Shown: positions 17,792-44,619, numbered from the stretch's first letter. The stretch is 64,000 nucleotides of DNA from Leptospirales bacterium (GCA_040326155.1 JBEQLE010000001.1:76959-140958); one strand, 5' to 3'. Notes: generated from the sequence alone by a model not told the origin. A program made the numbers and translations.

Positions 17792-18823
17792 ATGCCAGAG
17801 ATTATATTACCGGGAACATATGTTTCCGTTCGCGATGAGGGTTTGATAAGCGCCGGTGGTGTGATATCAGGGAATATCGGGGTGGTCGGGACAGCTGCTT
17901 CAGGTACTGTTAACAAAGTAGAAATACTGGGTTCTCTTACGGAAGCCGGAGAAGTTTTTGGGGCCAAAAAAAGTGGTCTCAATTTACTTGATACATTAGA
18001 ATTGATTTATGGAAACGGCGGCCGCACGGTTTATGCGATACGCGCCAACAGTGATACTCCGGAAGATTACAAGGCGGCACTTGCGCCGCTCGAAAAAGAG
18101 ATCGTTAACATCGTTCTTTTGGCGGGTCAAGATTCCTCCCAGGTTGAGATGGTCGCCGCGCTACAGGGGCACATTGCCTCTACTTCACAGATTAAAAGAG
18201 AACGCATTGGTTTGATCGGATGCGCTACCGCAGACGATGTCGAAACTATAGCGGCTCACCCGCTCAACAGTGAACGCGTGATTTTTGCCGGCCCCGGCAT
18301 CAAGATCGGGGGAGTTGATTATTCCGGCGCATATACGGCGGCGGCCCTGGCCGGTCTGCTTTCTTCTTTACCCGTACAGGCAAGCCCGACCAACAAAACG
18401 TTAAACGTACAAGGACTGACTGAAGAATTTACTTCATCAGAATTAGAGAAGCTCGTTATGAGCCGGGTTCTAGCCGTAGAAAAACGTAAGGGCTATCGTG
18501 TAGTCAAAGGGATTACCACTGCAACCAATAGCGCATGGCATCAGATCACAACTCGGCGTATTATCGACTATGCAACTTACGGAGTACGCTCTTGTTGCGA
18601 CCCTTATATTGGAAAACTGAATAACGACCGCGTGCGTAGCGCAATGAAAGCGACCATTGATTCCTTCTTAACGGGGATGGCAGCTGACGAAGCTTTAGTC
18701 AGCTATGAATTGGAAGTTGGCGCCACCAGAGCGCAGGAAATTGCCGGTGAGTGTATCGTCACTATGACACTACGTCCGACATTCAGTATTGATTTCATCA
18801 AAGTAACCATGTACCTCGGGTGA
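17792..18823 (+). CDS. Contractile tail sheath protein (short form)
   Basis: LPGTY.., G.A..G, SPTNK, ITT, I.TRRI.D, YIGK.N, C-terminal L.P.FSIDFI.V; typical of phage sheath domains. Confidence 0.9.
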   Translation: MPEIILPGTYVSVRDEGLISAGGVISGNIGVVGTAASGTVNKVEILGSLTEAGEVFGAKKSGLNLLDTLELIYGNGGRTVYAIRANSDTPEDYKAALAPLEKEIVNIVLLAGQDSSQVEMVAALQGHIASTSQIKRERIGLIGCATADDVETIAAHPLNSERVIFAGPGIKIGGVDYSGAYTAAALAGLLSSLPVQASPTNKTLNVQGLTEEFTSSELEKLVMSRVLAVEKRKGYRVVKGITTATNSAWHQITTRRIIDYATYGVRSCCDPYIGKLNNDRVRSAMKATIDSFLTGMAADEALVSYELEVGATRAQEIAGECIVTMTLRPTFSIDFIKVTMYLG

Positions 18824-18847
18824 TGGAAAAGGGATAAGGAGTAACAT

Positions 18848-19357
18848 ATGCCAAACAATAATGTTTTTCGAGGGTCGGACGCAACACTTGTGCTGGCCGT
18901 GGATGACAGCGCAACGGTAGAGGGAGGCCTTGCCGATGGCTTAATAAGCGAATATGATTTTTCCAATATCGTCGGGCGCTTGCAAGATGTAAGAGTGAAA
19001 GTACTCAATGAGGTGCGTCCTTACCATGAGATTGGAAAAAGATACCCGACTGAATTGAGACCGGGTAATATTGACGTTACGGGTTCGGCTCGCCGCGCTC
19101 ATATTAACGGAGCGATGTTAAAACTGCTTTTAGGGGATGGCGCAAAAAGTCCTCCTCCGGGGGGAGTGATGGCACAACCGGCTTTCAGTATGGTTTTAAA
19201 TTTACAAAACCCCGCGTTACCGGACAACACCAGTAAACTGGTCCTTTTTGGAGTGAAGTTTGAAAGTTGGAACTTTGAACTACCAGAAGATGATTTTGTA
19301 ATGGAGTCGGTTACGTTTCGGGCTATTCGTATTGCAGGTGAAGAAGCCAGCGCATGA
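18848..19357 (+). CDS. Tail tube protein
   Basis: Directly after sheath; 169 aa; VGRLQ.V, YHEIG, ESVTFRA pattern of tube proteins. Confidence 0.8.
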   Translation: MPNNNVFRGSDATLVLAVDDSATVEGGLADGLISEYDFSNIVGRLQDVRVKVLNEVRPYHEIGKRYPTELRPGNIDVTGSARRAHINGAMLKLLLGDGAKSPPPGGVMAQPAFSMVLNLQNPALPDNTSKLVLFGVKFESWNFELPEDDFVMESVTFRAIRIAGEEASA

Positions 19358-19728
19358 GTCAGGTCGATTTAAAATTAACTCCGGAGGAGATGTTGGCCGG
19401 ATCACAATTTAACTATGATCTGACAATTCCTGAGGAGATTTTAAAACCGGCAATGAATTCTGAATCGTCTGCTGACATTTCATCGGGCAAAGACAGTAAA
19501 TTGCACAATACGGTTACGATTGTTCCGCTATCGATTTCCCGATTTCAGTTGATTATGAAGGCGGCAAAAAATGACCCGGCAATGATACCTTTATTAATGA
19601 TTAAAGAATCATTGCGTGAACCATCTCTGAGTCTCAAACAAATAGAACAATTGCATATGGGGCTGGTTCGCTTTTTAATACAAAATATTCGTGAAATCAG
19701 CGGTTTGTTAGAAAAAAAAAATATATAA
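19354..19728 (+). CDS. Tail assembly chaperone (gpG/gpE-like)
   Basis: Lies after tube; ends on an A10 slippery run (19712-19721). Confidence 0.7.
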   Translation: MSQVDLKLTPEEMLAGSQFNYDLTIPEEILKPAMNSESSADISSGKDSKLHNTVTIVPLSISRFQLIMKAAKNDPAMIPLLMIKESLREPSLSLKQIEQLHMGLVRFLIQNIREISGLLEKKNI

Positions 19729-19874
19729 CAGAACTAGACCGCTCGTTCCTTGCGCAATCTTCGTATCGGTTAGCCAAAGAGTTTGGCTGGACCCCCTCTC
19801 AGGTAAGGAAAATGACTTTTTTACAGGTTAAATTATTCTTGCAGATGTTGGATAAAGACAAAGGAGTGGAGTAA
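19713..19874 (+). CDS. -1 frame extension of the tail chaperone (gpT/gpE'-like); not in ORF track
   Basis: KKKYITELDRSFLAQSSYRLAKEFGWTPSQVRKMTFLQVKLFLQMLDKDKGVE*; no own start near 5' end; stops just before next ATG (19876). Confidence 0.75.
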   Translation, partial: KKKYITELDRSFLAQSSYRLAKEFGWTPSQVRKMTFLQVKLFLQMLDKDKGVE

Positions 19875-19875
19875 C

Positions 19876-21060
19876 ATGACTTCTTACGGTAAAACTCTTT
19901 TCCTCGAATTTACCAGATTACAACGCGAGTTAGAAATCCAAAGTGAAGCACCCGAATTTCTAAATATTGGTAGGGAATTTCTTGACCCTTTTCATGACCT
20001 GTCCAACACCGAAACTGTTGTGCGAGAGGCGATTGATCTTTCACATTTTTTAACCTCCGGTTTTTTTCCTCATTCATCCGCTGATTTTCCTTTTATCGAT
20101 ACAGACCTCCGGCATCCTGATGATTTTCACGAAGATTTTGAATATTCGGAAAATTTACCACACCAAGAATCAGAAGCGCAAAAAGGATATGATACAAACC
20201 AAACTCTTAATGAGCAAAACACCAAACAATCGCCTTCACCCGAACAAAATTCAAAAAAGCCGAATACGGAACAAAAAACTGAAAGCGAAATAAATTTTTT
20301 ATCAAATCAAAACCCCGATAGGGAAACCATCGAACCAAATCGGGAACCGCAAACTTCCCAAGAGCCGAATGAGCAAAACACCAAACAACGGTCTTCACAA
20401 GATACAGCTTCAAGCGAGCGCACTTCACCGACAAAATCTACGCAGGTCTATCGATCAAAAAAAACGGCCACAGGAACATTACAAAATGGAAATGTCGATT
20501 CGTTGCGACAGCTCGGTATTGAAATTTCTCAAGATGTCCGCAATGATATAAAAGGAATACAACCAATTAATGACAGTGGAAATTTTACTAACCAAATCCA
20601 GATTTTGGAAAATCAAAATGCCTCCGCTGAAAGATCACCATCCGGAAATAACGTCGGGGAAACGTTGGGCCAACACTCTCAACAACCAACGTCTCAGGAA
20701 AGTTCTCCGCTAAGCAATTATATATCAGAGAAAAACGATTTTCCTGCGCCGCTGGGTTCTTTGCGGGAATTGGCAAAGAATATATCAGAAGGAGCTATCG
20801 TTTCTTCCGATGGAATTCTTTTTGCACAAGAAGAACTCACCAAGCCAAAACCGGAGACAAGTCAAAACGAAAACGAACACTCTATCTCCGGGACCGGGCA
20901 AGTTTCTACGGGAACACCGGAGCAGTTAAAGCATTTCGATTTGGAAAACAGCCGAGAATTTGACGTTAAGGATGGCCAGGGAATCGACAAGGAAGAGATG
21001 CTCGATTTAATTAAAAACGAGTTAGAATTACAATATTTGAGGTTATACGGCGAGGATTGA
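19876..21060 (+). CDS. Low-complexity protein in tape-measure position
   Basis: Follows chaperone; S/Q/N/E-rich disordered core with a 21-nt duplication (20209-20229/20368-20388); helical C-terminus L..EL..QY.RLYG. Confidence 0.5.
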   Translation: MTSYGKTLFLEFTRLQRELEIQSEAPEFLNIGREFLDPFHDLSNTETVVREAIDLSHFLTSGFFPHSSADFPFIDTDLRHPDDFHEDFEYSENLPHQESEAQKGYDTNQTLNEQNTKQSPSPEQNSKKPNTEQKTESEINFLSNQNPDRETIEPNREPQTSQEPNEQNTKQRSSQDTASSERTSPTKSTQVYRSKKTATGTLQNGNVDSLRQLGIEISQDVRNDIKGIQPINDSGNFTNQIQILENQNASAERSPSGNNVGETLGQHSQQPTSQESSPLSNYISEKNDFPAPLGSLRELAKNISEGAIVSSDGILFAQEELTKPKPETSQNENEHSISGTGQVSTGTPEQLKHFDLENSREFDVKDGQGIDKEEMLDLIKNELELQYLRLYGED

Positions 21061-21100
21061 TTTAGGTCCTCTATGTTTAAAAAGGTAAAACAGGTAAGAT

Positions 21101-21853
21101 ATGGCTATAGAGTTGGCAGAAATTGAGTTAAAGCGGGTTCACCGAATCGTAACGCAAGAACCCACTGCCTTTGTGCGCCATGCCATTCCGGGCATGGATG
21201 GCGACATGGTCCAGAACCTGGGGCGCGGAAGCGTTCGCCTTTTAATCGAAGGGATTTTTTATGGGCCGGAAGCTGCCAACGATCTGGAAAAACTACGCGG
21301 CCTTTATCGCAAAGCGCAACCCGTTGAGTTTCTAGCTGAGATCACAGGGCAATCCTATTTTGGCGAGGTCACACTGGAGGATTACCGGGTTTGGCAGTTG
21401 GCTTCGGAGCCCGACCAGTACAGTTACACTCTTACGATTGCCGAATACTTAAAACCGCCCGAACCGGAGACGGTCGAAGTTCCCGTAGCAACCGAAGTCG
21501 AAAGTCAAATCAAAGATCTGGCGTCGAAGGCGATGGATCTGGTGAGTTTACCGAAATTGGAAAACCCTTTGCCCGCCCTGGAAAAAGCGTTGGCCGATAT
21601 ACAAAAAGGGATCGAACTACTTGCGCTTTCTCCGAACTCGATTATCGAAAGCCTGCGTCCTGTTTTTGGTTTGGTCGAACCCAAAGCTGTCGAGATGAGC
21701 GCAGTTGATGAGGCTGGGAATCCGGTTCCCGACATGCCTTTATATTTTATCGACGAGGCAGGCGAAAAACACAAAGCGCAACTCGAAAACGGCAAGCTTG
21801 AAATGAAAGAGCTACCTCCGGGAAGTTATCGCGTCGTGGTGGGTAAGGAATAA
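21101..21853 (+). CDS. Tube-initiator/baseplate protein (Mu gp43 N-terminus-like) with C-terminal transthyretin/carboxypeptidase-regulatory-like domain
   Basis: H.IPG.DG..VQNLGR...L...G.F.G; C-terminal D..G.P......G......LPPG.Y.V. Confidence 0.6.
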   Translation: MAIELAEIELKRVHRIVTQEPTAFVRHAIPGMDGDMVQNLGRGSVRLLIEGIFYGPEAANDLEKLRGLYRKAQPVEFLAEITGQSYFGEVTLEDYRVWQLASEPDQYSYTLTIAEYLKPPEPETVEVPVATEVESQIKDLASKAMDLVSLPKLENPLPALEKALADIQKGIELLALSPNSIIESLRPVFGLVEPKAVEMSAVDEAGNPVPDMPLYFIDEAGEKHKAQLENGKLEMKELPPGSYRVVVGKE

Positions 21854-21855
21854 CG

Positions 21856-22545
21856 ATGGCTGTCGCACAAAATTTCGCGGTCATGGATATGATTGTTCCC
21901 GGCGGTGTATATAAAACCTTTCACGAATTCACCGCTTATGCAGATTTTACCAACTGGGTTGCCGAAGCAGATAAACAAAATATTTCTGAAGGCTACCCCT
22001 ACGGTAAAATTGACGATCCGGATAAGCCGCACAATCTGTATGTTTACTCCAAGAACTTTGCCGGCACAATTAGTGTTGGTTCAACTTTTACGGTAAAGCA
22101 GGTTGTCTATCACGCCAAAGCCGCTTTAAAGCGCGGCACAACTCTCCATGGCCCCTACCAGTGTATTTTGGTAGAGTTTGATTACGGCGGCGCCAAAACC
22201 CAGGGCTATATCTGGCCGGTCTACAACGGTTGGGTAGCCGAAATTGTCCCGGAAGGTTTATCTTTAATTATCGAAGAGGGGCAACTTGCAAATTTCCAGG
22301 CTATTTTTAAACAAAATTCCGACGGTAGCTATTCGCTCATAGACTTTGCGTTTTTCATAGAGATTGAAGACGACACTTTAGAAATCCATGTGATCGACCC
22401 CGGCGGAACACCGCTTTCATCGGCCACCATGATCTTAACCGGAGTCGACATTGCGCTTGAAAAAACGATTACAATTACGGATGGAACCGGTACACAAAGC
22501 GGATTAACACCGGGGACGTATCTGATTAAGAAGGGGGGTGTGTAA
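21856..22545 (+). CDS. Hypothetical protein: N-terminal domain shared with the 34075 protein plus C-terminal TTR-like domain
   Basis: QVVYHA..YQCILV..QGYIWPVYNG; C-terminal D..G.PL..A.......G....GL.PG.Y. Confidence 0.6.
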   Translation: MAVAQNFAVMDMIVPGGVYKTFHEFTAYADFTNWVAEADKQNISEGYPYGKIDDPDKPHNLYVYSKNFAGTISVGSTFTVKQVVYHAKAALKRGTTLHGPYQCILVEFDYGGAKTQGYIWPVYNGWVAEIVPEGLSLIIEEGQLANFQAIFKQNSDGSYSLIDFAFFIEIEDDTLEIHVIDPGGTPLSSATMILTGVDIALEKTITITDGTGTQSGLTPGTYLIKKGGV

Positions 22546-22548
22546 CCC

Positions 22549-26681: not shown

Positions 26682-26682
26682 A

Positions 26683-27453: not shown

Positions 27454-27471
27454 AAAATTGAAGGATTATAA

Positions 27472-27894: not shown

Positions 27895-27895
27895 T

Positions 27896-29107: not shown

Positions 29108-30427
29108 ATGTCTAAAGAAAAACAAATCATCGGCAGAATGCCGCACTTTTACAGTGACGAAGGGGACCTGATGTCTCTGGTATCTGTTTTTGCGCACACG
29201 CTTGAAGAGGCTGATGCGGATTTATTAAAAGTCATGCGGGGCCACTGGGTTGATACGGCTAACAACGAAGGCTCCAAAGGATTAAATACATCAACGAAAG
29301 GGGACCTCGACAAGATCGCGTCTTTTTATCTGGAAAATCTGGGTTCGACGAGTTTGTTAAAACAGGTCAACCGCCCACCGGAAGACGCCGGGTTGGAAAG
29401 CGACGCCATTCACCGGGGTCGCCTTAAGGGTTTAATCGATATTTTAAAAGAAGGCGCCTCAACCCAAAAAGGGATTGTGGAAATTATTGCGGCCAACCTC
29501 GGAATTTTCGGGAACTCTCCCGAGGCCGTAAAATCGAGGCAGTCGATCAAGATCATCGAGTTTGATCCTACACCTGAAATTATTTTTCACAATCAGCTTA
29601 AATTCTCACAAGAGTTCTCTGCGAATAACCAAAATCCGGAAAGCTCTCGTGCGCAATTTGTCATCGGTATCGATACGGTAAGCGCGACCCCGGTTTCACT
29701 ATCGCGTTTACAGGTTATGAACCTCGATGTAACCGGGGAAAACTATAGCATTAACAAAATCGGCGATACGCCGTCGGGTGTTTTGGAATACCGCGGGTCT
29801 CTTGCCAAAGGTGATCAGCTGTCGATCTTTCCGGATGGTAGTGCTCTTTTAAACGGCAGAAAAGTTCCCGTAACGGGCGACCTTGAACTTGCCCCTGGGA
29901 CATCTCGCTTTCGTATTGAAGCGATGGTGGGTTATTCCCGTGGAACTCTCGATCAAACGTTGTACGACTTCTCGTTGTATGAAGATGAAAAGTTCAACGA
30001 GTTGAGCGCTGAACTAAAAGAGATTTATTCGATTGATGTGGAAGTCACTTTAATGAAATTAACACCGGGCGCTTTTCGCGCCGACATCCCGTGGGATATT
30101 CCGGGGTTCAGCGAGAAGCTCGATATTCTTGAAGACGATCCGCGCAGCCAGATTATTGATATCATCCAAAAAGTGAGGGCCGCAGGTGTTCGTTCATCTG
30201 TATCCTTTATAAAAACGTTTCATGAATTTCATGAGATGAAAGATCTGTTCAAAGGACATGGCCGCCGAAACCCACTTATCGAAGACCATGTGCTCAAGGA
30301 AGACTTGCAGATCGCGAGCGTTCACAAACCCGTTCCGGGCGGGGAAGACATCGAGTTGGCTGATAGTTTAACCACCTCGGGTGTGTTTGATTATACGAGT
30401 TTTGATTCATTAAACAGGTTTACGTAA
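29108..30427 (+). CDS. Baseplate wedge protein (P2 gpI-like N-terminus)
   Basis: MP.FY, W+DTA...DLD.IA, ESD...R.RL, AST..GI, RAAGV; directly after J. Confidence 0.65.
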   Translation: MSKEKQIIGRMPHFYSDEGDLMSLVSVFAHTLEEADADLLKVMRGHWVDTANNEGSKGLNTSTKGDLDKIASFYLENLGSTSLLKQVNRPPEDAGLESDAIHRGRLKGLIDILKEGASTQKGIVEIIAANLGIFGNSPEAVKSRQSIKIIEFDPTPEIIFHNQLKFSQEFSANNQNPESSRAQFVIGIDTVSATPVSLSRLQVMNLDVTGENYSINKIGDTPSGVLEYRGSLAKGDQLSIFPDGSALLNGRKVPVTGDLELAPGTSRFRIEAMVGYSRGTLDQTLYDFSLYEDEKFNELSAELKEIYSIDVEVTLMKLTPGAFRADIPWDIPGFSEKLDILEDDPRSQIIDIIQKVRAAGVRSSVSFIKTFHEFHEMKDLFKGHGRRNPLIEDHVLKEDLQIASVHKPVPGGEDIELADSLTTSGVFDYTSFDSLNRFT

Positions 30428-30445
30428 AAGAAAAAAGGAGAAAAT

Positions 30446-34065: not shown

Positions 34066-34074
34066 GGGGGTTAT

Positions 34075-37000
34075 ATGATTGATAAAGGTCTTCTAAAAGA
34101 AGGGAAAGTATTTATCGTCCTGGGAAAAGACGGATTATTTAATAATCCGGAATATACGACATATTATAATTTCAACTGGCGCGTGCATAAAACGGGACAA
34201 CCCCTATTCGAATCCGGCTTTTATGAAGAGAGTGAACAACCGGTCCCTTTGCCTCCGTATACAATGCCGGAACATCGAATTGGAGATCTGGAGCCAAACG
34301 ATGTCATAATTCTTGATCAGGTTTTATTTCATGCCGAAAAGACGAATCGACAAAATGTGGCAGATACGGCGCACCAATGCCTACTTGTCACAGTAAAACA
34401 AGCTAAGAATAATCAGCTCATAGGTAAACAAGGGTTTATCTGGTCTGTTTATAACGGAAAACATTATATCACCCCATGTATAGGATCCGTTTCTTCTCAG
34501 GGAGGAAAGCCGGATCTGAAAATAACGAGTGGCCCGGGTAATATTACCAGTGTAAAGAAAAACGTCAATGAATCTATACCGGAAAGTAAAACTCCTAACT
34601 TCGATGAAGGTTACGTAATTGATCTTATTTGGTCCGATGGTAAACCAGGTTCAATACAAGGGTTAATTTTATATCCTGCTCTTTTGACGCCGGAAATACT
34701 CACTCCGAAATCAGAATCATTATCATTTGTATTGCTTACATTGGGGGGTTCTACTCAGCCCACAAGTAAACAGATCAAAGATCAGTTGAAAATTAGCTAT
34801 GGCTTATATTTTAAAGAGCCTGCATTGATTTTATCGGGTCTCCAGGAGGTTGATATTAATGTAGATGAAATTGCAAATACGCAAGCCCTGATAAGTACCA
34901 ATGATTTTAAAGGAGTTATCGATAGTCGAGTTGACTATAAGTCTAAAACGCAAGAGGACAACTGTTATAGGGTAACTATTCAAAAGAGCGTTTTTCAAAA
35001 TGGAGATCCATCTAAACCTTTATTTAAGAAAAATAAATTAAAACAAAAAAACTCAAATGATGAGGCGATTAACACAACATTAAAAAAATATAAAACAGAT
35101 AAAATCCCCGGATCGGGTAAACACTGTTTTCAGTTTGAGGAGGATGATATTAATTTTACAAAATCTGATTTAACTCGCCCAATTCGCTCACACCATCCTG
35201 TATTTATATTAGGGAAAAAAGAACGGCATAAAACTAATGGATATAATTTTGCTCAAATGAGTGATATACATATAAGCTCTCGCGAGCACACGCTGAGGAA
35301 ATCGCAAGCAAAAGTTATTGAGGGAGTTTCTGATGATATTTCATGCCCAGTTGGATCGATGGTCAATATCGCATCGAAAAATATGAAATCATTTTTAGAT
35401 ATATCAGGTTGCTCAGACGAAACTGATATAATACTTATTTCCGGGGATGTGATTGACCATATACCAAATGCACGGGTGGATAGTAGCGAAACAGTTTCAG
35501 AGATTTGGGAGAACCTTAAACTTGAAGATAGCCCTTCACTTGGCGATTGGAGCCCGGATGATAATTACCAACTTTTCTGGGATCATATTGCCTTTTATTC
35601 GTTCATAGTTTACTTTTATGAAAGATTTAAAAAACCTTCATATTATGTGACCGGGAACCATGATGTCTATGGCGCTCCCTATGGAATAACTCCTGTATTA
35701 TTTTCTGAAGGCAATTTAGATTCAAATAAAAAAGAAAATCACCCTCTGTTGAACGAGGGTATTCCTGCTGACCATAACCTTACTTTTTATGAAGCACAAT
35801 TGATCTTTGGCGATACATCCAAATCTGTATATGAAAATAGCTCTGGAATAACGCTGAAATACCTGGACTGGATTCACAGTTGTTACACACCTTTTAAGGA
35901 TTATTTGATTGAGTGGGATAAGCAAAATATAATCGCCCTTGGCTGGGGCGATAAGGAAGACCTTATGTTAGACTCTCAAGGTTGGATGGGGCATTTGCCA
36001 AGATCGGAAGACCCATTCACTGAAATTCAATTTAACTTATTGAAAGAAATAAATAATAACTCGAATAATACGAAAAAACATATTCTATTAAGTCATTTTA
36101 CCTTTATCTCTTATCATGAGATGATTCCGGATCATCATTTAGATGGCGGCGGCGTTTTAAAAAGTGAGTATCAAATGCCAAACCAGTACCAAATCAACTT
36201 AAATAAAGATTATAATTGGTATGATATGGGAACTTTTGAGGAGGAACGTTTAGCTTCATATAAATATGCTAAAGAGAGATTGCACGTAATTGTCACAGGC
36301 CATTCGCACCGCAGAGCAGCCTATACATTTGGGGATATAAATATAGATGGAACAAAAATTGAAACCAGGATGCACCCTTTGAGTGAGAGTAAATATTTTG
36401 ATTTAGATGATGTTACAAAAACCTCCAGGACTCCTGTTGTTGTGGTGTCTGATTCGACAGGGCCGTTGCCCCGTCTCAATAGGGATGGGGAATTTTTTGG
36501 TTGGGGTAGCGATCAGGCAGCCGGATTGCTTCTTCATTTTTTAGATAATGACAAACTAAAGGTAGATACACTCAAAGTAGGCCCTAAACCACGCTTTTGT
36601 GTCACGCTTGACTACCAAACGGCCTTGCGTGAGGCGAGTATAGAAAAGTATCATGATATGTTCAACTCCAGTATATATGAGGACGAACACAATGCGTTTA
36701 CTAAGATCATACCCGGACAATTTTTCGTAAAAGAGATAGATTTGCAGACACCTTTTCCAAATAATAGCATCCTTTTTCTAAATCAAGTAGGAATGAAGGG
36801 AATTCCTCAGACAAACCTGGGAACATTTATTCAGTCAGATTCAAATACAGTTGCTGCAAAAACCAAAAAAATTGTAGATATATTTAATTCTATAGTTTCC
36901 GATGACACCCGATTCCAGGCAGTAATGAATTCTTTTGTGAGTAATGATAGCTTAACTGAAGCTGGGTCGGATTATTTGGCCGGTTTAAACCTGGCAATTC

Positions 37001-37716
37001 AAAACGCTCAAAACAGTGACCAAGTGAGCTCTTTGCGTAAGTCATTCCTTCATAACTTGTTTCCAAAACTGACAAAGAATACAGATCCTTGGCTGCGTAT
37101 TGATAAAGAGAAAGCCCACCCTGTTGCCGTTTTTTTTGTATACAAAGATGCCCCTGGCACGCTCTATTGTAATTTAGATTCATCTTTAATGGAAGAAGTA
37201 AGTATTGAATCTATAAAATTTTACACTCACGAAATGGTTGTTAATAATGCAGTAACAAACACAAATTTAGTCGAAGTATGTACGAGCGAAGTCGAAGTGT
37301 ACAAAATTACAAAAAAAAGCATAATTTCTGGAATTGAAAACTCTGTCAGTGTCTCTACTTATAAATGTAAAATAGACGACTCTCATCAAGCAAACTTGAA
37401 CAGAATCTTGGGAAATGACGATCAGTTTGAAGAGGTATTTGCTTCCATAAAATTCTGTGGTAAAGAGAGCTCTATATTTAAAGATATATATTGCTTTAAT
37501 ACACCATGGAATTTTCTAATATTAAGGAGAAAACCTTTTGGTTATTTAGATTATGATATTGATGTTCAAAAGATTATGGACATTGAAGCCTATAAAGTAA
37601 GCGGAGAGTCGAAAGGTAAAGATGCTTATATACTTATTCCATATGTAGACCCACACTTTCTTCCCAACTATGAGTTGCGGCAAGAACTTTATCCTCAAAA
37701 ATACTCTGAAGAGTGA
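34075..37716 (+). CDS. Calcineurin-like metallophosphoesterase protein (1213 aa), candidate cargo/effector
   Basis: DIH, GDVID, GNHD, SH and GHSH motifs in canonical order; visibly more AT-rich than the structural genes; no signal peptide. Confidence 0.8.
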   Translation: MIDKGLLKEGKVFIVLGKDGLFNNPEYTTYYNFNWRVHKTGQPLFESGFYEESEQPVPLPPYTMPEHRIGDLEPNDVIILDQVLFHAEKTNRQNVADTAHQCLLVTVKQAKNNQLIGKQGFIWSVYNGKHYITPCIGSVSSQGGKPDLKITSGPGNITSVKKNVNESIPESKTPNFDEGYVIDLIWSDGKPGSIQGLILYPALLTPEILTPKSESLSFVLLTLGGSTQPTSKQIKDQLKISYGLYFKEPALILSGLQEVDINVDEIANTQALISTNDFKGVIDSRVDYKSKTQEDNCYRVTIQKSVFQNGDPSKPLFKKNKLKQKNSNDEAINTTLKKYKTDKIPGSGKHCFQFEEDDINFTKSDLTRPIRSHHPVFILGKKERHKTNGYNFAQMSDIHISSREHTLRKSQAKVIEGVSDDISCPVGSMVNIASKNMKSFLDISGCSDETDIILISGDVIDHIPNARVDSSETVSEIWENLKLEDSPSLGDWSPDDNYQLFWDHIAFYSFIVYFYERFKKPSYYVTGNHDVYGAPYGITPVLFSEGNLDSNKKENHPLLNEGIPADHNLTFYEAQLIFGDTSKSVYENSSGITLKYLDWIHSCYTPFKDYLIEWDKQNIIALGWGDKEDLMLDSQGWMGHLPRSEDPFTEIQFNLLKEINNNSNNTKKHILLSHFTFISYHEMIPDHHLDGGGVLKSEYQMPNQYQINLNKDYNWYDMGTFEEERLASYKYAKERLHVIVTGHSHRRAAYTFGDINIDGTKIETRMHPLSESKYFDLDDVTKTSRTPVVVVSDSTGPLPRLNRDGEFFGWGSDQAAGLLLHFLDNDKLKVDTLKVGPKPRFCVTLDYQTALREASIEKYHDMFNSSIYEDEHNAFTKIIPGQFFVKEIDLQTPFPNNSILFLNQVGMKGIPQTNLGTFIQSDSNTVAAKTKKIVDIFNSIVSDDTRFQAVMNSFVSNDSLTEAGSDYLAGLNLAIQNAQNSDQVSSLRKSFLHNLFPKLTKNTDPWLRIDKEKAHPVAVFFVYKDAPGTLYCNLDSSLMEEVSIESIKFYTHEMVVNNAVTNTNLVEVCTSEVEVYKITKKSIISGIENSVSVSTYKCKIDDSHQANLNRILGNDDQFEEVFASIKFCGKESSIFKDIYCFNTPWNFLILRRKPFGYLDYDIDVQKIMDIEAYKVSGESKGKDAYILIPYVDPHFLPNYELRQELYPQKYSEE

Positions 37717-37920: not shown

Positions 37921-37992
37921 TTATCCCCAAAATTATATAAAAATACTTTACGCTTCCCAGAAACACTATACATATGGATATATATAAAGAGC
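37921..37992 (+). promoter_or_regulatory. Duplicated upstream element, copy 1 (before fibre 2)
   Basis: TTATCCCC.AAATTATATAAAA(A)TACTTTAC...CACTATACATATGGATATATATAAA also at 42234-42303. Confidence 0.7.
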
Positions 37993-38111
37993 GTTAAAGC
38001 TACGACATTTGATTTCCCGCCTGCCGACATAGAACGTAGTTAGGAAATCCCTATCTATTTTTTCCTTATCTTGCGTAGTCAGTGCCGTGCAAATGACAAA
38101 AGAGGGAACAA

Positions 38112-41075
38112 ATGGCATTAATCGATAAACAGAAAAATCCTGGCGACATGATCAAGTCGCAAGACTGGAACGACACCGTAGATGAAATCAACCGACTTGA
38201 TAAAGATAAGGTAAATAAAACGGGCGATCTGATTACGGGGGGTCTATCGGTAGGCGGTAAACTCACCGTGAAAGATCAATTTCAAATCGGCGATGCGAGT
38301 CACATAAAATCATTCACTCAAAAGGGCGCAGGCGAATTACAAATAGGGCTGGGTAAATTTCGCATCGGTACGATGATACAGATCGAAGCGAGAATCGCCG
38401 GAGCCAATGCCGAGACAGCTGGGCTCTACCATATCGTCTGCGACTGGAATGAACGGCCTTCGATTTTATACCAGAGCGTTGGTGACAAAATGGAGCGATT
38501 AGCGTTCTTTGGCTACCGCCAGAATGAAGAAACCCTGGACGCTTCGAGTCTGGCCATACCCAGCGGCGCTGTTTACCTCTGGGCAAGATGGCTACCTGAC
38601 GACGCCAAACCCGTCGATCAAAATAACACGTTGTATTTAAAAGCCGCCTCTGTTACCGAATTTGACGAGCTTGATATTGGCGTTTGGGAGACGGCAGTGA
38701 AATATCCGGTGGGGAAAGTTTTGACTGTCGATTCGCGAAGCGGAAATGTGGGGATTGGGACAGATGCTCCGGTCACGAAGCTACATGTAACCGGTGCCAC
38801 TACGCTTGAGTACCTTAGAGTATTACCATCTTCGACAAGTGAAGGCGGAGAAGTACAACTCTTGGGTGCCGGTACGAATCCACCTTGGCACCTCGACGTA
38901 TATGACAACCGATTTCGAATTCACAGTGGAGGTGAGAAACTCAATATTCTTTCGAATGGAAATGTCGGGATAGGGACGAGTTCTCCTACAAACAAATTAA
39001 TGATCACCGGAATTACACCACAGTCAAACGATGGCATCGTCGTTCAATCAACAGACAATCGCACTATTTCATTATTACCGAGTAGAGGGGCCGGAGGTCA
39101 CAACCCTTTAGTTTCTGCCGGAGATACATCGATTATATATTCAGCAGGTGCACCAAATACAGGTGCCTTCGTTATTGGACAATGGAGTTCCACAACGAAT
39201 GGTTTGAAAATTGCAGCAAATGGGAATGTTGGGATTGGGACTGGCACACCGAAAAACAAACTTCATCTATGCGGAGTTACCGATGGAGCGATCATCTCGG
39301 ATCCAAATGATCGTCCAGGTCTTGTAATTACAGGCCAATACCCTCAAATCGATTTATTCAGTGCAATGAACAATGGAGCTCATGGGCCTACGATTCGTCT
39401 GGGTGGGTATAATGACGACAGTAAAACTACGTTTAAACATTGGGTCATTGGCACGTCAGGGAGAAACTGTAGGCATCTCGATATTGGATTTTCCGCCAAT
39501 AACGACCCAAATCCACATGCGGGAATTCGCAATTACAATGGCAGTACGAAAATGACATTTCTGGAAAATGGGAATGTGGGAATTGGGACGCTGGAGCCGG
39601 GAGCGAAATTGCAAATCAAGGGGAATCAGATTATTGAACGAGAAGCTGGTCACTTGCTTTTAGATCGCCAAGCTAGTGAAACGACAGGCGGTAATAAGAT
39701 ATTTCTGGAGTTGCGACAAATGGATGCTAATCCTGCAAAAGTACCAGCTATTTTTCCGTCTATTAGGTTTCACCATGCTTACAAGTTTTGGCATAGGCTG
39801 GAGGGGCGCCCGGATGGATTACACGTAAAAGATGGTCACGAATTAAATGATGTTTATAGACCTTTCCATGCTTCTGAACTGACTATCCATGGAAATAATA
39901 TACGAACAACTGGCCGAATGCATTTAGACGGACCTGAATTATGTTATATTTTAAACAAAAGTGGTGTAATCATCGGTAAAGAGTGGGGTGGAAATGGTAA
40001 CCTTTCGGTACAAGGTGTTTTTAGTAATTCCGATCGGCGTTTGAAAAAAAACATTAAAAAAATAAATTCATCATTAGAGAAACTAACGAAATTACAGGGT
40101 GTTTCCTATTACTGGAAAAACCCGGAACGTTTGCCCACTCTTCAAATCGGACTAATTTCTCAGGAAGTTGAAGAATACTTTCCAGAATTGATCAGCCTGG
40201 GTAGAGAAGGAGTAAAGTATATAAACTATTCAGGCTTAATCGCGCCCTTAATTGAGTCTACGAAAGAACAGCAAAAACAAATTGAAACGTTATCGGCACA
40301 AAACGAAAACCAGCAAAAAACTATCGACCACTATCACAAATCATTAAAAGGCGCAGATTTTGCTGAGTACTTTAAATCGTTAGACGGAAAAAGTATGGCT
40401 CCGGGTGTTTCTGTTGTCATGGATAATGGGAAGATCCGCGTAGCGAAGAAAGGGGAAGTACCATTTGGCGTTACTTCGGAGAATCCACGAATGTTGGGCG
40501 GTCTCCATTCTGAGTGGCCTGGCAAAATTTTACAAGATACTTTCGGCAACGACATCCTCGAAGAATACAAAGAAGAGATCATGGCGCAAAAAACCGAAAA
40601 GGTAAAACGCCAACGCCAAAAAGTAAAAACTAAAACCATCGAAAAAGATGTGATTGAAACGGTCGAGAAAACCGTCAAAGGCAAGAAGGTCATGGTTGAG
40701 GTGACCAAAAAAGAGACGCGCGAGATTGACGAACCACAGTTCAAAGAAGTTGAAATCTACGACGAAAAAACCAAAGAGGTCATTCGCACTGAGCAGGTTC
40801 CGGTTATGGAAACCTACGAGGTCGAGGAACTTGTCTACAATGAAAACGGTGAGTCGGTCATGGTCGGCACAGGTAAATTTGAGAAGAAGACACGTCCGAA
40901 ACTGAACCCCAAATATGATCCAAAGCGTGAGTATGTTCCGCGTGATCAACGTCCTGAGTGGAATGTTGTTGGGCTGGTTGGGCAGATTCCGCTTCGTAAG
41001 GGGCAGCCGACTGCGCCGGGCTGGGTGAAGATGAAGGATCTTGATGAGGATGTTGAGTTGTGGTTGGTGAAGTGA
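38112..41075 (+). CDS. Tail fibre/adhesin 2 with S74 and peptidase G2 chaperone domains
   Basis: N- and C-termini paralogous to fibre 1, different middle; four GNVGIGT repeats; SDRRLKKNI; ADFAEYF. Confidence 0.85.
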   Translation: MALIDKQKNPGDMIKSQDWNDTVDEINRLDKDKVNKTGDLITGGLSVGGKLTVKDQFQIGDASHIKSFTQKGAGELQIGLGKFRIGTMIQIEARIAGANAETAGLYHIVCDWNERPSILYQSVGDKMERLAFFGYRQNEETLDASSLAIPSGAVYLWARWLPDDAKPVDQNNTLYLKAASVTEFDELDIGVWETAVKYPVGKVLTVDSRSGNVGIGTDAPVTKLHVTGATTLEYLRVLPSSTSEGGEVQLLGAGTNPPWHLDVYDNRFRIHSGGEKLNILSNGNVGIGTSSPTNKLMITGITPQSNDGIVVQSTDNRTISLLPSRGAGGHNPLVSAGDTSIIYSAGAPNTGAFVIGQWSSTTNGLKIAANGNVGIGTGTPKNKLHLCGVTDGAIISDPNDRPGLVITGQYPQIDLFSAMNNGAHGPTIRLGGYNDDSKTTFKHWVIGTSGRNCRHLDIGFSANNDPNPHAGIRNYNGSTKMTFLENGNVGIGTLEPGAKLQIKGNQIIEREAGHLLLDRQASETTGGNKIFLELRQMDANPAKVPAIFPSIRFHHAYKFWHRLEGRPDGLHVKDGHELNDVYRPFHASELTIHGNNIRTTGRMHLDGPELCYILNKSGVIIGKEWGGNGNLSVQGVFSNSDRRLKKNIKKINSSLEKLTKLQGVSYYWKNPERLPTLQIGLISQEVEEYFPELISLGREGVKYINYSGLIAPLIESTKEQQKQIETLSAQNENQQKTIDHYHKSLKGADFAEYFKSLDGKSMAPGVSVVMDNGKIRVAKKGEVPFGVTSENPRMLGGLHSEWPGKILQDTFGNDILEEYKEEIMAQKTEKVKRQRQKVKTKTIEKDVIETVEKTVKGKKVMVEVTKKETREIDEPQFKEVEIYDEKTKEVIRTEQVPVMETYEVEELVYNENGESVMVGTGKFEKKTRPKLNPKYDPKREYVPRDQRPEWNVVGLVGQIPLRKGQPTAPGWVKMKDLDEDVELWLVK

Positions 41076-41116
41076 TTTTATTTCACAATTATCCCCTTAC
41101 GGACATAAGGTGGGTG

Positions 41117-41656
41117 TTAAACAAGAGAACCATATATCGGTGTTACATCAATAGCATTTAACATAAGTTCAAGCATTTGAGAATTTAAATGTCGATATGT
41201 AAAATAATATCGCAGATTTTTTTCAAATTTATTAAATTTGCCCCAATCAACTCCAACAATTGGACTGTTCGTATCATAGGACATTGTAATCATTAAGCTG
41301 ATAGCAAAGTTTTCATTAACCCATTTAATTTGAGGATATTTGATTAAAGTGTCTTTATCGATATCCTTTATTAATTGAATCGGCTTTCTTCTCGATACCC
41401 AATATGCTGTATAAGCGGCAACTTTTTTTGGATTTGCTCTTTCAATGCCGTGAAAATCTTTTAGTCGAGTAATATCAGAAAAGTAATCTAATAAAATTTC
41501 ATCTATTAAATATTCATTAACTACTGCAAAATTATCAATATTTGCAGATTTAATGTAATGCCTTGCTTTTCCATAAATAAAAAGAAATCTATTTTTCAGG
41601 CATTCTTCGCCAAAGTCTTTTATTAGATTCTCATAAGAACGATCACTGTTTTCCAT
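41117..41656 (-). CDS. Hypothetical protein (DI.R.K.FH...N..K.AAY.AYW..RRKPIQ motif)
   Basis: 179-aa AT-rich ORF overlapping a small upstream gene. Confidence 0.65.
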   Translation of the reverse strand: MENSDRSYENLIKDFGEECLKNRFLFIYGKARHYIKSANIDNFAVVNEYLIDEILLDYFSDITRLKDFHGIERANPKKVAAYTAYWVSRRKPIQLIKDIDKDTLIKYPQIKWVNENFAISLMITMSYDTNSPIVGVDWGKFNKFEKNLRYYFTYRHLNSQMLELMLNAIDVTPIYGSLV

Positions 41657-41849
41657 CGTCGGTAAGTAATGTTTTGAATTGGTCAGATTTTACAAAATTG
41701 TCAAAACTATTTGATGCTTTTTCAATTGGGTATTCTGGTGAGTTATTTAATTGAACTTGTTTTTTAAAGGTTTTATCTTTAATTCGATCAATAAATCTTT
41801 TACTTGCATCGATTGTTGATTTATCGAAATGTTTTTCGAAATCGCTCAC
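41643..41849 (-). CDS. Small hypothetical protein, first gene of the antisense pair
   Basis: 68 aa, GTG start with GGGGG RBS-like run; overlaps 41117-41656. Confidence 0.5.
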   Translation of the reverse strand: MSDFEKHFDKSTIDASKRFIDRIKDKTFKKQVQLNNSPEYPIEKASNSFDNFVKSDQFKTLLTDDGKQ

Positions 41850-42233
41850 GTTTTACCCCCGCAAAAAGAATAAGTAATCTTAAAATAAATTACCATTTAA
41901 TAAGCCATTATTTTTATGTAGTGTGCAGATAGTCAACAAAAAAATGGTTTATAGTATCGTTTCTGGCCAAAATGAACTTTATGAATATTTTTAAATCCAG
42001 AGTCGACATGATGCGATATGACCAATTCCGGGCACATAGTCTTTACATTGGTAGCGGCGTCATTTAGCCCCAAATAAATACGTTATCCAAAACAGACTGA
42101 AAAGATTTGGTATGAAATGCTCCATTACTAGCGCAAAAACCATCGCAAAACTTCGAACCATTTCTTATAAAACAAATGGGATTACACATGGGACGTTGAG
42201 TAACCATCAAATTTTACCCGCAACAACCAATAT

Positions 42234-42303
42234 TTATCCCCTAAATTATATAAAATACTTTACACTTGTTAAAAGCACTATACATATGGATATATATAAA
42301 AGC
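42234..42303 (+). promoter_or_regulatory. Duplicated upstream element, copy 2 (before fibre 3)
   Basis: Matches 37921-37992. Confidence 0.7.
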
Positions 42304-42421
42304 ATCCAAGCCTGCGCTATTTAACCTAATCCGTTACCGGTATTCGCTCCGGTTGGGGAATTTCCTACCTGTTTTTTGCCGACCCCGGCAGGCCCGGATA
42401 AAACGATAACCGAGGGAACAA

Positions 42422-43177
42422 ATGGCATTAATCGATAAACAGAAAAATCCTGGCGATATGATCAAGTCGCAAGACTGGAACGACACCGTAGATGAAATCA
42501 ACCGGCTCGACAACGATAAGGTGAATAAAGCGGGCGATCTGATTACGGGGGGTCTATCGGTAGGCGGTAAACTCACCGTGAAAGATCAATTTCAAATCGG
42601 CGACGCGAGTCATATAAAAGCGTTCAGCGAAACAGGCGCAGGCGAATTAAAAATCGGGCTGGGTAAATTTCGCATCGGTACGATGATACAGATCGAAGCG
42701 CGGATCGCCGGAGCCAATGCCGAGACAGCGGGTCTCTACCACATCGTCTGCGACTGGAACGAGCGGCCTTCGATTTTATACCAGAGCGTCGGTGACAAAA
42801 TGGGGAGATTAGCGTTCTTTGGCTACCGCCAAAATGAAGAGACCCTGGACGCTTCGAATCTGGCGATACCCAGCGGCGCCGTCTACCTCTGGGCAAGATG
42901 GCTACCCGACGAGACCAAACCTGTCGATCAAAGTAACACGTTGTATTTGAAGGCCGCCTCCGTTACCGAGTTTGATGAGCTCGATACCGGCGTCTGGGAA
43001 ACCGCTTTGAAGTATCCTGTAGGGAAAGTTTTGACTATCGATTCGCGAAGCGGGAATGTCGGGATTGGGACGGATGCTCCGGGGGTAAAAGTGTACAAAG
43101 ATGTAAAATTACCCATCTACACCCACCAACAAAAACAAATCACCCTACTCCCGTTCTATCCACACGATTACTGGTAA
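42422..43177 (+). pseudogene. Truncated tail fibre 3 (anchor domain only)
   Basis: 42412-43082 is colinear with 38102-38772; homology ends right after the first GNVGIGTDAP, then ~30 unrelated codons. Confidence 0.75.
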
Positions 43178-43179
43178 GA

Positions 43180-43731
43180 TCACGTAATCCCCGAAACCAT
43201 TCCCCCCGGGCTGCCCACGAAAGGCGCATGAGCGCCCGGCACCGGCGTTGTTGGCTTTTGCAATTTTACCCAGTCAATGACACAACCCGCAAGTTGCAGC
43301 ATCGATTCCTCTCTGTCATTGGTATCATTATCCAGGTCAATTGCTATTGAGAGGTTGAGGTTTGTGATTGTGGGTGAATAGGCCATCGGCATGGGAGAAG
43401 TCGCAAAACCTACATCGGTGATGTTGTACATGGCCGCACTTAGTCCTGTGACCAACTCGCCTATCATGTGATCCATCGCCTCTTTCCGAATTTCGGCTTT
43501 TGATGCGGTTAAACTCATCGCCAGGTTTTGAATTTTTCCTTTGGCGGTGGTTATTGTGTCTGGGGTGCCTGCCGGATTTAACGCGACCCAGCTAAAACTT
43601 ACCTCCGCATTATCAGCGATATATTTAGCAATAGCCTCGCCCAGTTTTGACAGCGCACCCTCTGGAGCAACCCCATCAGTCGCCGCCAGAAGCGCTTTTT
43701 GTAAACCCTCAGCACTTAAAGCCATAACCAC
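43180..43731 (-). CDS. Hypothetical tail-associated protein (probable start 43725)
   Basis: MAL....L.......L..AI..Y....A.V pattern, recalled from small proteins next to phage baseplate spikes. Confidence 0.5.
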   Translation of the reverse strand: MVMALSAEGLQKALLAATDGVAPEGALSKLGEAIAKYIADNAEVSFSWVALNPAGTPDTITTAKGKIQNLAMSLTASKAEIRKEAMDHMIGELVTGLSAAMYNITDVGFATSPMPMAYSPTITNLNLSIAIDLDNDTNDREESMLQLAGCVIDWVKLQKPTTPVPGAHAPFVGSPGGMVSGIT

Positions 43732-43807
43732 TTCCTTAGATTTTTCATAGACATGTTACACCGTATTGTTATAAAGACAATCATAACGTTTAAGAAACAA
43801 TAGAATG

Positions 43808-43826
43808 TACAAAACATTGTTTTGTA
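43808..43826. promoter_or_regulatory. 19-bp perfect palindrome between divergent genes (operator candidate)
   Basis: TACAAAACA-T-TGTTTTGTA. Confidence 0.5.
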
Positions 43827-43916
43827 AAGGAAAAAATAAAGCATAAAGGCGCGAAAGAGATTCGCTGCTGATTATATTAATTATTTATAAAATTTAAATG
43901 TAGGTAGGTAAGAACA

Positions 43917-44111
43917 ATGAAAAAACAATTAGAACAAAGACTGGAAACACTCAAAAGTGAATTTTCTGACGGCCAAAAACAACTAATGGAACTTCAAAAT
44001 CAGGAGACATCACTAAAAGAAACTCTACTACGAATTAGCGGCGCCATACAAGTTCTTGAAGAAGAGATAAATGGACCTGAACCGGCCTCGACGAATTTAA
44101 ATGATAAATAA
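43917..44111 (+). CDS. Small coiled-coil protein
   Basis: Heptad pattern ending LLRISGAIQVLEE; overlaps next gene. Confidence 0.7.
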   Translation: MKKQLEQRLETLKSEFSDGQKQLMELQNQETSLKETLLRISGAIQVLEEEINGPEPASTNLNDK

Positions 44112-44619
44112 ACTCATTCAATCCATCATTCTTCTGCTGGAGCAAAACTTGAGCGCGATTTTGGACACTCCGGTAGATCAAACAAATCCATCACTCACGG
44201 TTTTACCGGGCAAGTTTTCTTTTGTTCCCGGGGCCAATCAAGATCGTCTGCAAGCACGCGCTCAGCAATTAGCGTCCGAGCGAGATTTCAACCAGGAATT
44301 TTTTGTAAAAATTCTGGCTCCGGACGTAGCGAAAAGTGAAGAAATAGCCGCGCTTGCCATTAACATTATTATCACAGAAAAAGAGTTCCTGCTTGGGCAG
44401 GTAAACCGCGAAAACAAAGCAACATACCAAACCGGTAAGTACGTATCAGAAATCGATATAACCGAATTTCAGTTTCTCGAAGGCGCACTAGATAACTCCG
44501 GTGCCGTAATTAATTTCGTCATGAAATTTCAAGCCGGCGGACGTTTAACTCTAGCCAAAGAAGCCGGACCGGCTGAAGTTATTGAAAAAGTAGTTCTAAA
44601 TGAGCCTAACGTACAATAA
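44101..44619 (+). CDS. Possible tail terminator/cap (Pvc16/Afp16-like) or hypothetical protein
   Basis: MI..L...I..LL...L start, alpha/beta pattern, terminal position in the locus; weak support. Confidence 0.4.
   Translation: MINKLIQSIILLLEQNLSAILDTPVDQTNPSLTVLPGKFSFVPGANQDRLQARAQQLASERDFNQEFFVKILAPDVAKSEEIAALAINIIITEKEFLLGQVNRENKATYQTGKYVSEIDITEFQFLEGALDNSGAVINFVMKFQAGGRLTLAKEAGPAEVIEKVVLNEPNVQ

Follow-up and report, generated by a model that had tools for sequence, protein, structure and literature searches.

The subject of this analysis is a gene cluster for a contractile, phage-tail-like particle in the genome of a Leptospirales bacterium (GCA_040326155.1; own assembly of 4.26 Mb in 171 contigs, 94.66% complete). 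The cluster lies in a stretch of 64,000 nucleotides (JBEQLE010000001.1:76959-140958), which is called the window throughout and from whose first letter positions are counted, and it occupies 17792-44619 as a co-directional set of genes recognized from a listing of open reading frames (ORFs) and from Pfam and PHROG scans (Table 1). Contigs of the same assembly are designated by C and related loci in other genomes by L. An earlier reading of the window, made from the sequence alone and referred to here as the original prediction, had described a headless contractile injection system of atypical composition; all the parts that it named were present in the ORF listing, on the + strand and in their predicted places, and the tail terminator, which it had overlooked, has been added from AlphaFold2 (AF2) models and Foldseek searches.

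Boundaries and gene content of the cluster

The tail set of the cluster is full, comprising sheath, tube, chaperone, tape-measure candidate, tube initiator, hub, spike, three wedge proteins and fibres, with the terminator as the last gene. Each structural role of a contractile tail is thus filled, and the core ORFs are intact and tightly spaced; the check for gene decay found none in the core genes. The cluster is flanked by a pair of direct repeats that are identical at 125/131 nt (95%) and that bracket the block from sheath to terminator exactly. The G+C content is 45-46%, with core values of 0.43-0.465, and differs from that of the genome (0.396), and the sheath family was found in none of the 300 other genomes that represented the host's phylum (E <=1e-20), a sample that held no relatives of this genome at the genus or family level. 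Because of this G+C offset, the flanking repeat and the absence of the sheath family from the phylum sample, the evidence points to the 27-kb stretch between the repeats being a discrete, horizontally acquired island.

No integrase gene was found inside the island, and ARAGORN detected 0 tRNA genes in the window. The upstream flank is ordinary, with genes for TsaD, a sigma-70 factor, TopA, XerC and HslVU, and the HslU of the window is 72% identical to Spirochaetia bacterium proteins, 68% to Leptospiraceae and 62% to Turneriella. The promoter-like site before the sheath gene, with 11/12 consensus matches and an extended -10 element, is the top-ranked site in 16600-19000.

The flanking repeat belongs to a dispersed element of about 86 nt, found at at least eight sites, with the core ...GGCCGACGACGTCCC...TTCCACATGTTCG...GCGGAATGCGACCGC. 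Six other contigs (C102, C100, C154, C53, C86 and C106) have weaker copies, with identities of 71-85%, and the island-flanking pair is the longest and most alike among the copies. Scanning of 16700-17900 returned 0 Rfam families, and RNAalifold over eight copies gave no convincing structure (-2.1). Directly 3' of the island there is a type I restriction-modification system (HsdR, HsdS and HsdM; 44919-53506), in which genes for a HigB-like toxin and a helix-turn-helix (HTH)-M78 protein are inserted between hsdR and hsdS; partial copies of hsdR, 80-86% identical, are present on the short contigs C49 and C61.

Table 1. Features of the repeat-bounded cluster, with positions in the window
Feature	Position	Strand	Basis or remark
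Direct repeat, left copy	17533..17662	.	Pairwise identity to right copy
Promoter-like site before sheath gene	17698..17725	+	TTGACA, 16 nt, TG-TATATT; consensus match only
Tail sheath, 343 aa, minimal form	17792..18823	+	PF17482 3.3e-15, PF04984 3.6e-12, DUF2586 1.3e-6, phrog_279 2e-44
Tail tube, 169 aa	18848..19357	+	Conserved in 79 related loci, median identity 69%; Pfam match weak, below cut-off
Tail assembly chaperone, 124 aa	19354..19728	+	Position; conserved in 76 loci; A10 slippery run at 3' end
Chaperone -1 frame extension (G/GT type)	19695..19874	+	Open 59 codons, overlaps chaperone end
Tape-measure candidate, 394 aa, mostly disordered	19876..21060	+	Position after frameshifting chaperone
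Tube initiator, Mu gp43 tube-like domain, 250 aa	21101..21853	+	DNA_circ_N 3.5e-5, above cut-off; phrog_184 baseplate hub; 59 loci
Locus-specific protein, 229 aa	21856..22545	+	No family match; no homologue in related loci
Giant helix-rich protein, 1059 aa	22549..25728	+	Weakly conserved, 20-25% identity
Baseplate hub, gp27 / Mu gp44-like, 318 aa	25725..26681	+	Family profile matches
Spike, gpV-like, 256 aa	26683..27453	+	Phage_base_V 1.2e-8; phrog_9992 1.1e-16; TIGR01644 7.3e-11, below cut-off
Sheath initiator, gp25 / Mu gp46-like, 140 aa	27472..27894	+	PF10934, PF07409, PF04965 above cut-off; phrog_975 3.7e-23
Baseplate J, 388 aa	27896..29062	+	PF04865 1.7e-15; phrog_6 7.7e-46
Putative third wedge protein, 439 aa (Mu gp48 position)	29108..30427	+	Position; 9 loci at 28-42% identity; weak PHROG baseplate match
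Conserved protein between wedge and fibre, 157 aa	30446..30919	+	phrog_5417 2.5e-23 (function unknown); phrog_4176 tail fibre 2.2e-6
Fibre 1, 1026 aa	30985..34065	+	Peptidase_S74 2.4e-13, Peptidase_G2 1.3e-32, many tail-fibre PHROGs
Calcineurin-like metallophosphoesterase, 1213 aa, candidate payload	34075..37716	+	Atlas score 0.94 to Metallophos clusters; GD/GNHD/GHSH motifs
Fibre 2, 987 aa	38112..41075	+	Peptidase_S74 1.3e-15, Peptidase_G2 5.5e-30
Two ORFs, 179 and 68 aa	41117..41849	-	No informative family match; low-G+C stretch
Truncated third fibre copy, 251 aa	42422..43177	+	Residues 1-225 92% identical to fibre 2, then diverges and stops
ORF, 183 aa	43180..43731	-	No family match; no homologue in related loci
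Tail terminator (cap/collar), 172 aa	44101..44619	+	AF2 and Foldseek; homologues 3' of fibre gene
Direct repeat, right copy	44669..44799	.	Pairwise identity to left copy

The sheath lacks the surface insertion of 100-220 aa that is present in longer relatives, and its PDB profile matches are phage and pyocin sheaths, with none from the Afp or PVC systems. The tube was modeled by AF2 at a predicted local distance difference test (pLDDT) value of 69, and its Foldseek matches are tail tubes, XkdM and Hcp, all at E >=4e-3; no Pfam match to the T4 gp19-type family (PF06841) was found for it, and a PDB profile search returned chance matches only. The short sheath and single tube of the original prediction therefore stand, the former by Pfam and PHROG and the latter by AF2 and Foldseek (E >1e-3).

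The terminator was modeled by AF2 at a pLDDT of 89, and nearly all of the top Foldseek matches to this model are proteins of the terminator, gateway, collar or cap type (E 2e-5 to 1e-2, TM-scores of 0.3-0.5), with targets from P1, E217, T4, A-1(L), monocin, diffocin, pyocin R2, lambda gpU and PVC. Homologues stand directly after the fibre gene in 5/5 extended related loci, and it is because of these matches and this position that the cluster is considered to have its own terminator at its 3' end. This family has 177 clusters among 1.84 billion representatives, and its PDB profile search gave 0 matches.

A G/GT frameshift arrangement before the tape-measure gene is classical, and the chaperone gene conforms to it, as the A10 run is followed by a -1 frame with 48 further open codons beyond the chaperone, ending a single nucleotide short of the start codon (ATG) of the 394-aa gene. 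This bears out the phage-style chaperone that had been predicted. In 44/74 loci, window included, an A-run is combined with a -1 extension of 44-60 codons, and in two more with an extension in the +1 frame; more distant loci have no such run. The 394-aa protein, the tape-measure candidate, is variable and gave 0 tblastn matches in the related loci, and a gene of 361-433 aa stands at the same position in four relatives, with a C-terminal ...Y(K/L)R(F/L)YG motif in common to L009.

According to PMC11915804, gp43 of phage Mu is the tube initiator and combines a tube-like domain with a helix-rich domain. In the island the tube-like domain is encoded on its own, and counterparts of the giant helix-rich protein are encoded separately in 14 loci (1132-1225 aa), and in eight they are fused behind the tube-initiator domain, giving 1284-1373 aa. 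These fusions, as distinct from demonstrated homology, suggest that the giant protein may be a partner of the tube initiator. It is absent in four loci (L009, L012, L017 and L036), which have a J protein of 710-716 aa instead. Its family gave generic helical-bundle matches only in the PDB profile search, and the 1059-aa protein had no usable match in the ESM Atlas.

In the baseplate, the separate hub and spike of the original prediction were both confirmed, the spike by Phage_base_V and the hub by profile matches to the tCIS (thylakoid-anchored contractile injection system) protein All3320 (9gtr, 1e-6), an AlgoCIS baseplate chain (7aef), Pvc8 and Mu gp44 (1wru, 1.4e-4). The gp25-like, J and wedge proteins were likewise upheld by Pfam and PHROG matches, and the J protein of the window is the sole Baseplate_J match in the genome. 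The 157-aa protein, which had been named a fibre-attachment protein, is a real gene kept at the same place in nine loci; the label derives from its position, phrog_5417 and a weak tail-fibre match. NCBIfam models applied to 21 island ORFs gave only spike-related matches below cut-off and one chance CheB match.

Related loci and the absence of head genes

The sheath search gave 1995 protein matches (E <=1e-3 among 7999 scored candidates), the top ones being 62-74% identical and several of them named Microcystis. A scan of one reference genome per species yielded 211 sheath relatives, of which the best 80 were kept for locus comparison. Sheath identity to relatives from other phyla is 58-74%, and ten phylum labels are represented, including the Spirochaetota of the window itself: the others are Cyanobacteriota, Bacteroidota, Chloroflexota, Acidobacteriota, Gemmatimonadota, Thermodesulfobacteriota, Pseudomonadota and Actinomycetota, plus a Methanotrichaceae archaeon. 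The Chloroflexota members include the complete genome of Herpetosiphon aurantiacus DSM 785.

When the window proteins were compared with the related loci by tblastn, conservation started exactly at the sheath. Matches were obtained in 82 loci for the sheath, 79 for the tube, 76 for the chaperone, 59 for the tube initiator and 40 each for hub and spike, and the counts for genes past the spike are limited by the 10-kb locus flank. The ORFs upstream of the window sheath matched in 0 related loci, and the upstream ORFs of close relatives have no family in common. The composition that had been called atypical is thus the regular one of a large cross-phylum family, with its 211 relatives and conserved gene order. 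No description of this sheath family was found in the full-text literature; the supplements of surveys of extracellular contractile injection systems (eCIS) and subscription journals, which lay outside that scope, may list some loci.

Two variations on this layout were seen. A distant subgroup of 17 loci (including L050, L053, L054, L057, L058 and L060), with sheath identities of 47-57%, is marked by a conserved gene (about 370 aa) directly upstream of the sheath, and a sigma-54-like or SARP-type regulator-like ORF was noticed, by eye only, near some of these loci. In addition, two complete clusters (L033 and L034), with sheaths about 60% identical to that of the window, stand in tandem about 22 kb apart on one Bacteroidales contig.

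In a FastTree phylogeny of 101 sheaths, 77 family sheaths form one group with a Shimodaira-Hasegawa-like support of 92, and 23 viral-contig sheaths are set apart from the other rows by a branch of length 3. The window sheath has an end branch of 0.49 within a clade of 26 rows from Bacteroidota, Cyanobacteriota, Chloroflexota and Acidobacteriota, with one labelled Pseudomonadota, and it therefore lies outside the phages sampled, a point on which the original prediction had asked for a check. The closest isolated phage is 28.5% identical over the whole sheath. Only two close relatives were found in IMG/VR, both on contigs that start about 385 nt before the sheath; sheath identity to the other 24 viral loci is <=32%, and no sheath match was found among PLSDB plasmids.

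The headless nature of the system was examined in the assembly and across the family. No match to the TerL families PF03354, PF03237 and PF04466, the portal families PF04860 and PF05133 or the capsid family PF05065 was obtained in the genome, with all six controls positive; Portal_Mu (PF06074) also gave no match there, but its control was likewise silent. Upstream of the sheath, head genes were found by Pfam among 0/99 ORFs in 16 related loci and by PHROGs among 0/117 ORFs of 250-850 aa in 28 further loci, a count that left out ORFs >850 aa and seven loci, so that they are absent upstream in 44/44 related loci examined. The same procedure gave head-and-packaging matches for 36/46 ORFs and in 9/10 distant viral contigs as a positive control. 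Downstream of the terminator, 0/41 ORFs in five related loci are head, AAA+ or recognized lysis genes. These results agree with the headless character claimed at the outset, and the split prophage that might have undone it found no support in the six informative families.

A decaying Mu-like prophage remnant, which in this genome would have lost the modules for head, replication and lysis and have no function, is the reading that the lack of any recognized head, integrase, regulator or lysis gene might suggest, and one truncated fibre copy and foreign low-G+C genes inserted nearby would fit it as well. However, the headless layout is found in every related locus examined, in nine other phyla, and in 5/5 loci the terminator gene has been relocated to the 3' end. 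The core ORFs are all intact and the programmed frameshift site is conserved. Furthermore, dN against the nearest loci ranges from 0.15 (tube) to 0.84 (hub), and dS is saturated and not computable in 17/18 pairs, so that no dN/dS ratio is given, while the proteins are still 40-80% identical. Overall, decay of a prophage appears very unlikely.

Fibres, a candidate payload and release

Of the three fibre alleles originally predicted, two are full genes and the third is a truncated N-terminal copy. Fibres 1 and 2 have N- and C-terminal parts in common, the last 360 aa of fibre 2 being 72% identical to fibre 1, and the region upstream of the truncated copy is also duplicated (repeats D6 and D9). 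A Mu-like invertible fibre switch was considered and rejected, as no invertase was found in the island and a Shufflon_N match within fibre 1 was read as a common fibre repeat. Elsewhere in the genome, an 853-aa YadA-head repeat protein (C141:5719-8280) ends in a Peptidase_G2-type autoproteolytic domain like that of the island fibres, with 40% identity over about 235 aa to the fibre end; it adjoins a radical SAM protein and lies outside any tail cluster.

The gene of the 1213-aa metallophosphoesterase stands between the fibre genes and is low in G+C (36-38%). Homology was detected between residues 26-128 of this protein and residues 24-125 of the 229-aa protein encoded in the baseplate module (28% identity, pairwise E 4e-8), and a six-frame genome search with this N-terminal domain of about 105 aa gave the 1213-/229-aa pair as the sole match (E 1.7e-5). 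Comparison of the 229-aa N-domain with longer proteins, by a method that needs common 5-mers and is therefore weak, scored none. PADLOC on nine accessory ORFs, including the 1213-aa protein, returned 0 matches, and no known eCIS cargo marker was found in the island by Pfam. A role of the metallophosphoesterase as payload is therefore only hinted at, through the domain that it has in common with the 229-aa protein, and the cargo of the original prediction was not borne out beyond this link. Among the other accessory genes, the 179-aa protein has a 32%-identical copy on C133.

At related loci, possible locus-specific payloads are seen directly after the terminator, namely a caspase-domain protein (L097:4924-5733) and three proteins of 417-702 aa on the same strand (L095:10843-16354, - strand).

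With regard to release, family scans agree with the original prediction that the island has no lysis genes. No AAA+ family was found on the ORFs of 16978-44619 or in the 99 upstream ORFs of the 16 related loci, and neither a membrane-anchor protein in the island nor a free-standing small ORF with several transmembrane (TM) segments between the repeats was recognized. Just outside, 270 nt left of the left repeat and with a divergent HTH/membrane gene pair on the side away from the island, there is a 94-aa ORF (16978-17262) with three predicted TM segments and no family match, which is holin-like in size and topology only. As it lies beyond the repeats and matches no family, it was rejected as the holin of the island and is kept as a lead.

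A system that is not released, with particles that stay cytoplasmic or membrane-anchored and operate either on contact or in the producer's own death under stress, like those of the Streptomyces CIS and the cyanobacterial thylakoid-anchored CIS, would account for the lack of a lysis cassette in the island and in the ORFs examined beside the related loci. The family is often hosted by filamentous or multicellular bacteria, such as Herpetosiphon, Nostoc, Microcoleus and Moorena, and cytosolic and anchored CIS, as described in PMC10598620, offer a precedent. However, the two long fibres with their receptor-binding-type architecture, self-cleaving chaperone domains and duplication are expected of a device aimed at foreign cells, and the search for an anchor or a multi-TM ORF gave nothing. 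We therefore consider retention of the particles unlikely, and extracellular use, tailocin-like or eCIS-like, to be the most likely.

Interpretation and comparison with known systems

Overall, the stretch between the repeats is probably an intact, horizontally acquired island that encodes a complete and functional headless contractile tail particle and belongs to a distinct, widespread Mu-like lineage. In the working that we envisage, one promoter before the sheath gene would drive a long + strand operon. The baseplate would be assembled from the spike, the hub, the tube initiator with its separate giant helix-rich partner and three wedge proteins, and the chaperone and its -1 frameshift product would handle the tape-measure protein. 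Tube and minimal sheath would then polymerize and be capped, both of them, by the 3'-encoded terminator. The target range may be set by two alternative fibres, both of which carry a self-cleaving chaperone domain, and binding to a target cell would lead to sheath contraction and to passage of tube and spike through the envelope. Killing by puncture alone and additional carriage of the metallophosphoesterase are both possible.

Several points weigh against this interpretation. The particle is known here from genes alone; the tape-measure assignment follows from position and a mostly disordered sequence, the confidence of the tube model is moderate, and no fold match of the tube falls below E 1e-3. 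With an assembly of 171 contigs at 94.7% completeness, head genes on missing sequence are possible, and many family members are metagenome bins, some of whose phylum labels may be wrong. The truncated fibre copy and the low-G+C genes inserted among the fibres indicate ongoing rearrangement at the 3' end. In addition, Pfam, PHROG and NCBIfam recognized no holin, endolysin, spanin or regulator in the island, and as it has neither a lysis cassette nor an Afp15-type ATPase, its recognized genes suggest no route of release.

A broader proposal may be put forward tentatively, although we think it more probably wrong than right: that these loci are a third major lineage of contractile injection machines beside the type VI secretion system and the Afp/PVC-type eCIS, domesticated once from a Mu-like tail and passed among at least ten phyla, including archaea, with no AAA+ ATPase or lysis genes of its own. 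In such a lineage the tube initiator might have grown its giant helix-rich module, which would be delivered to the target cell or inside it, in the way that gp43 of Mu passes into the host along with the DNA, and in this spirochaete the metallophosphoesterase might in addition have been recruited as payload via the common N-terminal docking domain. The headless tails known so far are narrow-range tailocins and the Afp/PVC-type eCIS, the latter under engineering for protein delivery. A third compact lineage, if true, would widen this repertoire with about 14 core genes, no ATPase and a minimal sheath of 343 aa, in hosts as varied as cyanobacteria, Bacteroidota, spirochaetes and a methanogen-related archaeon, and it could serve structural and engineering studies as a small chassis. 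It would also raise the questions of how particles exit without a lysis cassette and what the role of the giant partner of the tube initiator is.

Among known systems, the tail module of phage Mu (gp37 and gp39-gp49) has the same parts, with a DUF2586-type sheath, a tube, a frameshifting chaperone, a tape measure and a DNA_circ_N tube initiator, and the same order continues through hub, spike, gp46/gp25, a J-like protein and a third wedge protein to the fibre, the Mu roles being taken from PMC11915804. The Mu-like nature of the cluster, which had been predicted, is thus well founded in families and gene order (DUF2586, DNA_circ_N, GP46/gp25, Baseplate_J and the chaperone frameshift). There are also significant differences. 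Unlike Mu, the island has no recognized head, transposition, regulation or lysis genes, its terminator is encoded after the fibres and not before the sheath, and the helix-rich part is in this family a giant protein of about 1059-1230 aa that is usually a separate gene. From phages in general it is separated by a sheath identity of <=32% to any phage searched.

With R-type tailocins the island has in common a chromosomal, headless contractile tail cluster and fibre diversity, and multiple fibre genes are present in kosakonicin as well. R-tailocins of Pseudomonas syringae are said to derive from Mu-like phages (PMC4542187), and R-tailocin clusters carry genes for holin, lysin and spanin, with regulation of the PrtR/PrtN type (PMC10598620). 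In contrast, none of these lysis proteins and no PrtR/PrtN-type control was recognized in the island. Its family crosses phyla and domains, whereas known tailocins are, to our knowledge, confined to related genera.

The comparison with eCIS of the Afp/PVC/MAC/AlgoCIS type is complicated by a second contractile system in the same genome. Contig C48 (1-4293) encodes the C-terminus of an AAA ATPase, a Pvc16_N protein (3.3e-33), a CarboxypepD_reg protein, a 494-aa sheath, the only one in the genome besides that of the island, and a tube of the T4 gp19 type (PF06841, 2.6e-44); the contig is a fragment of a canonical eCIS of the Afp/PVC type. The absence of an Afp15-type ATPase that was originally noted thus holds for the island and not for the genome. 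A 1720-aa protein with an eCIS_core (DUF4157) domain is encoded on C145 (13406-18568). Since the window J protein is the sole Baseplate_J in the genome, the rest of this second system is either unassembled or divergent.

One might therefore suppose that the island belongs to the Afp/PVC-type superfamily (Chen et al., 2019) and has its ATPase and cap elsewhere in the genome, as those genes on C48 and C145 would allow. Like eCIS, it is headless, sporadic across bacterial phyla and archaea, and has its terminator or cap gene at the 3' end; its hub profile matches Pvc8, the AlgoCIS baseplate chain (7aef) and tCIS hub domains, and its terminator matches the PVC cap chain 9qgn_A at E 3.5e-3 (Foldseek). 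However, C48 has its own sheath and gp19-type tube and is thus a system separate from the island, and its sheath stands outside the family as a lone branch of length 4.33, so that one spirochaete genome would hold two unrelated contractile systems. Of the subunits present in >85% of eCIS loci (Afp1/5, Afp2/3/4, Afp7, Afp8, Afp9, Afp11, Afp15 and Afp16, as given in PMC6899500), the island has an Afp2/3/4 sheath (PF04984 and PF17482), a gp25-like Afp9 and the J protein Afp11. Four of the eight core types fail by sequence, namely the gp19-type tube, the fused VgrG (Afp8), the Afp15 ATPase and Pvc16_N, the last with no PF14065 match and an HHalign probability of 0.3% between the terminator and the Pvc16_N protein of C48. 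No LysM match to Afp7 was found in the island, in which the DNA_circ_N tube initiator fills that position, and Pfam recognized neither PAAR nor an eCIS_core domain there. Membership of the eCIS superfamily is in our view extremely improbable.

The Streptomyces CIS and the Anabaena tCIS, which belong to the Afp-type superfamily, resemble the island in having no lysis cassette and in being frequent in filamentous bacteria, and differ from it in that the island has long, phage-type fibres. Some eCIS loci are also without lysis and regulatory genes, according to PMC10598620. The original description of the cluster as an intermediate between tailocin and eCIS is apt for its gene content, and an evolutionary position of that kind could not be shown. 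Judged by its genes, the cluster would be tailocin-like or eCIS-like in its working, is a member of neither defined group, and is closest in gene content to the tail of phage Mu.

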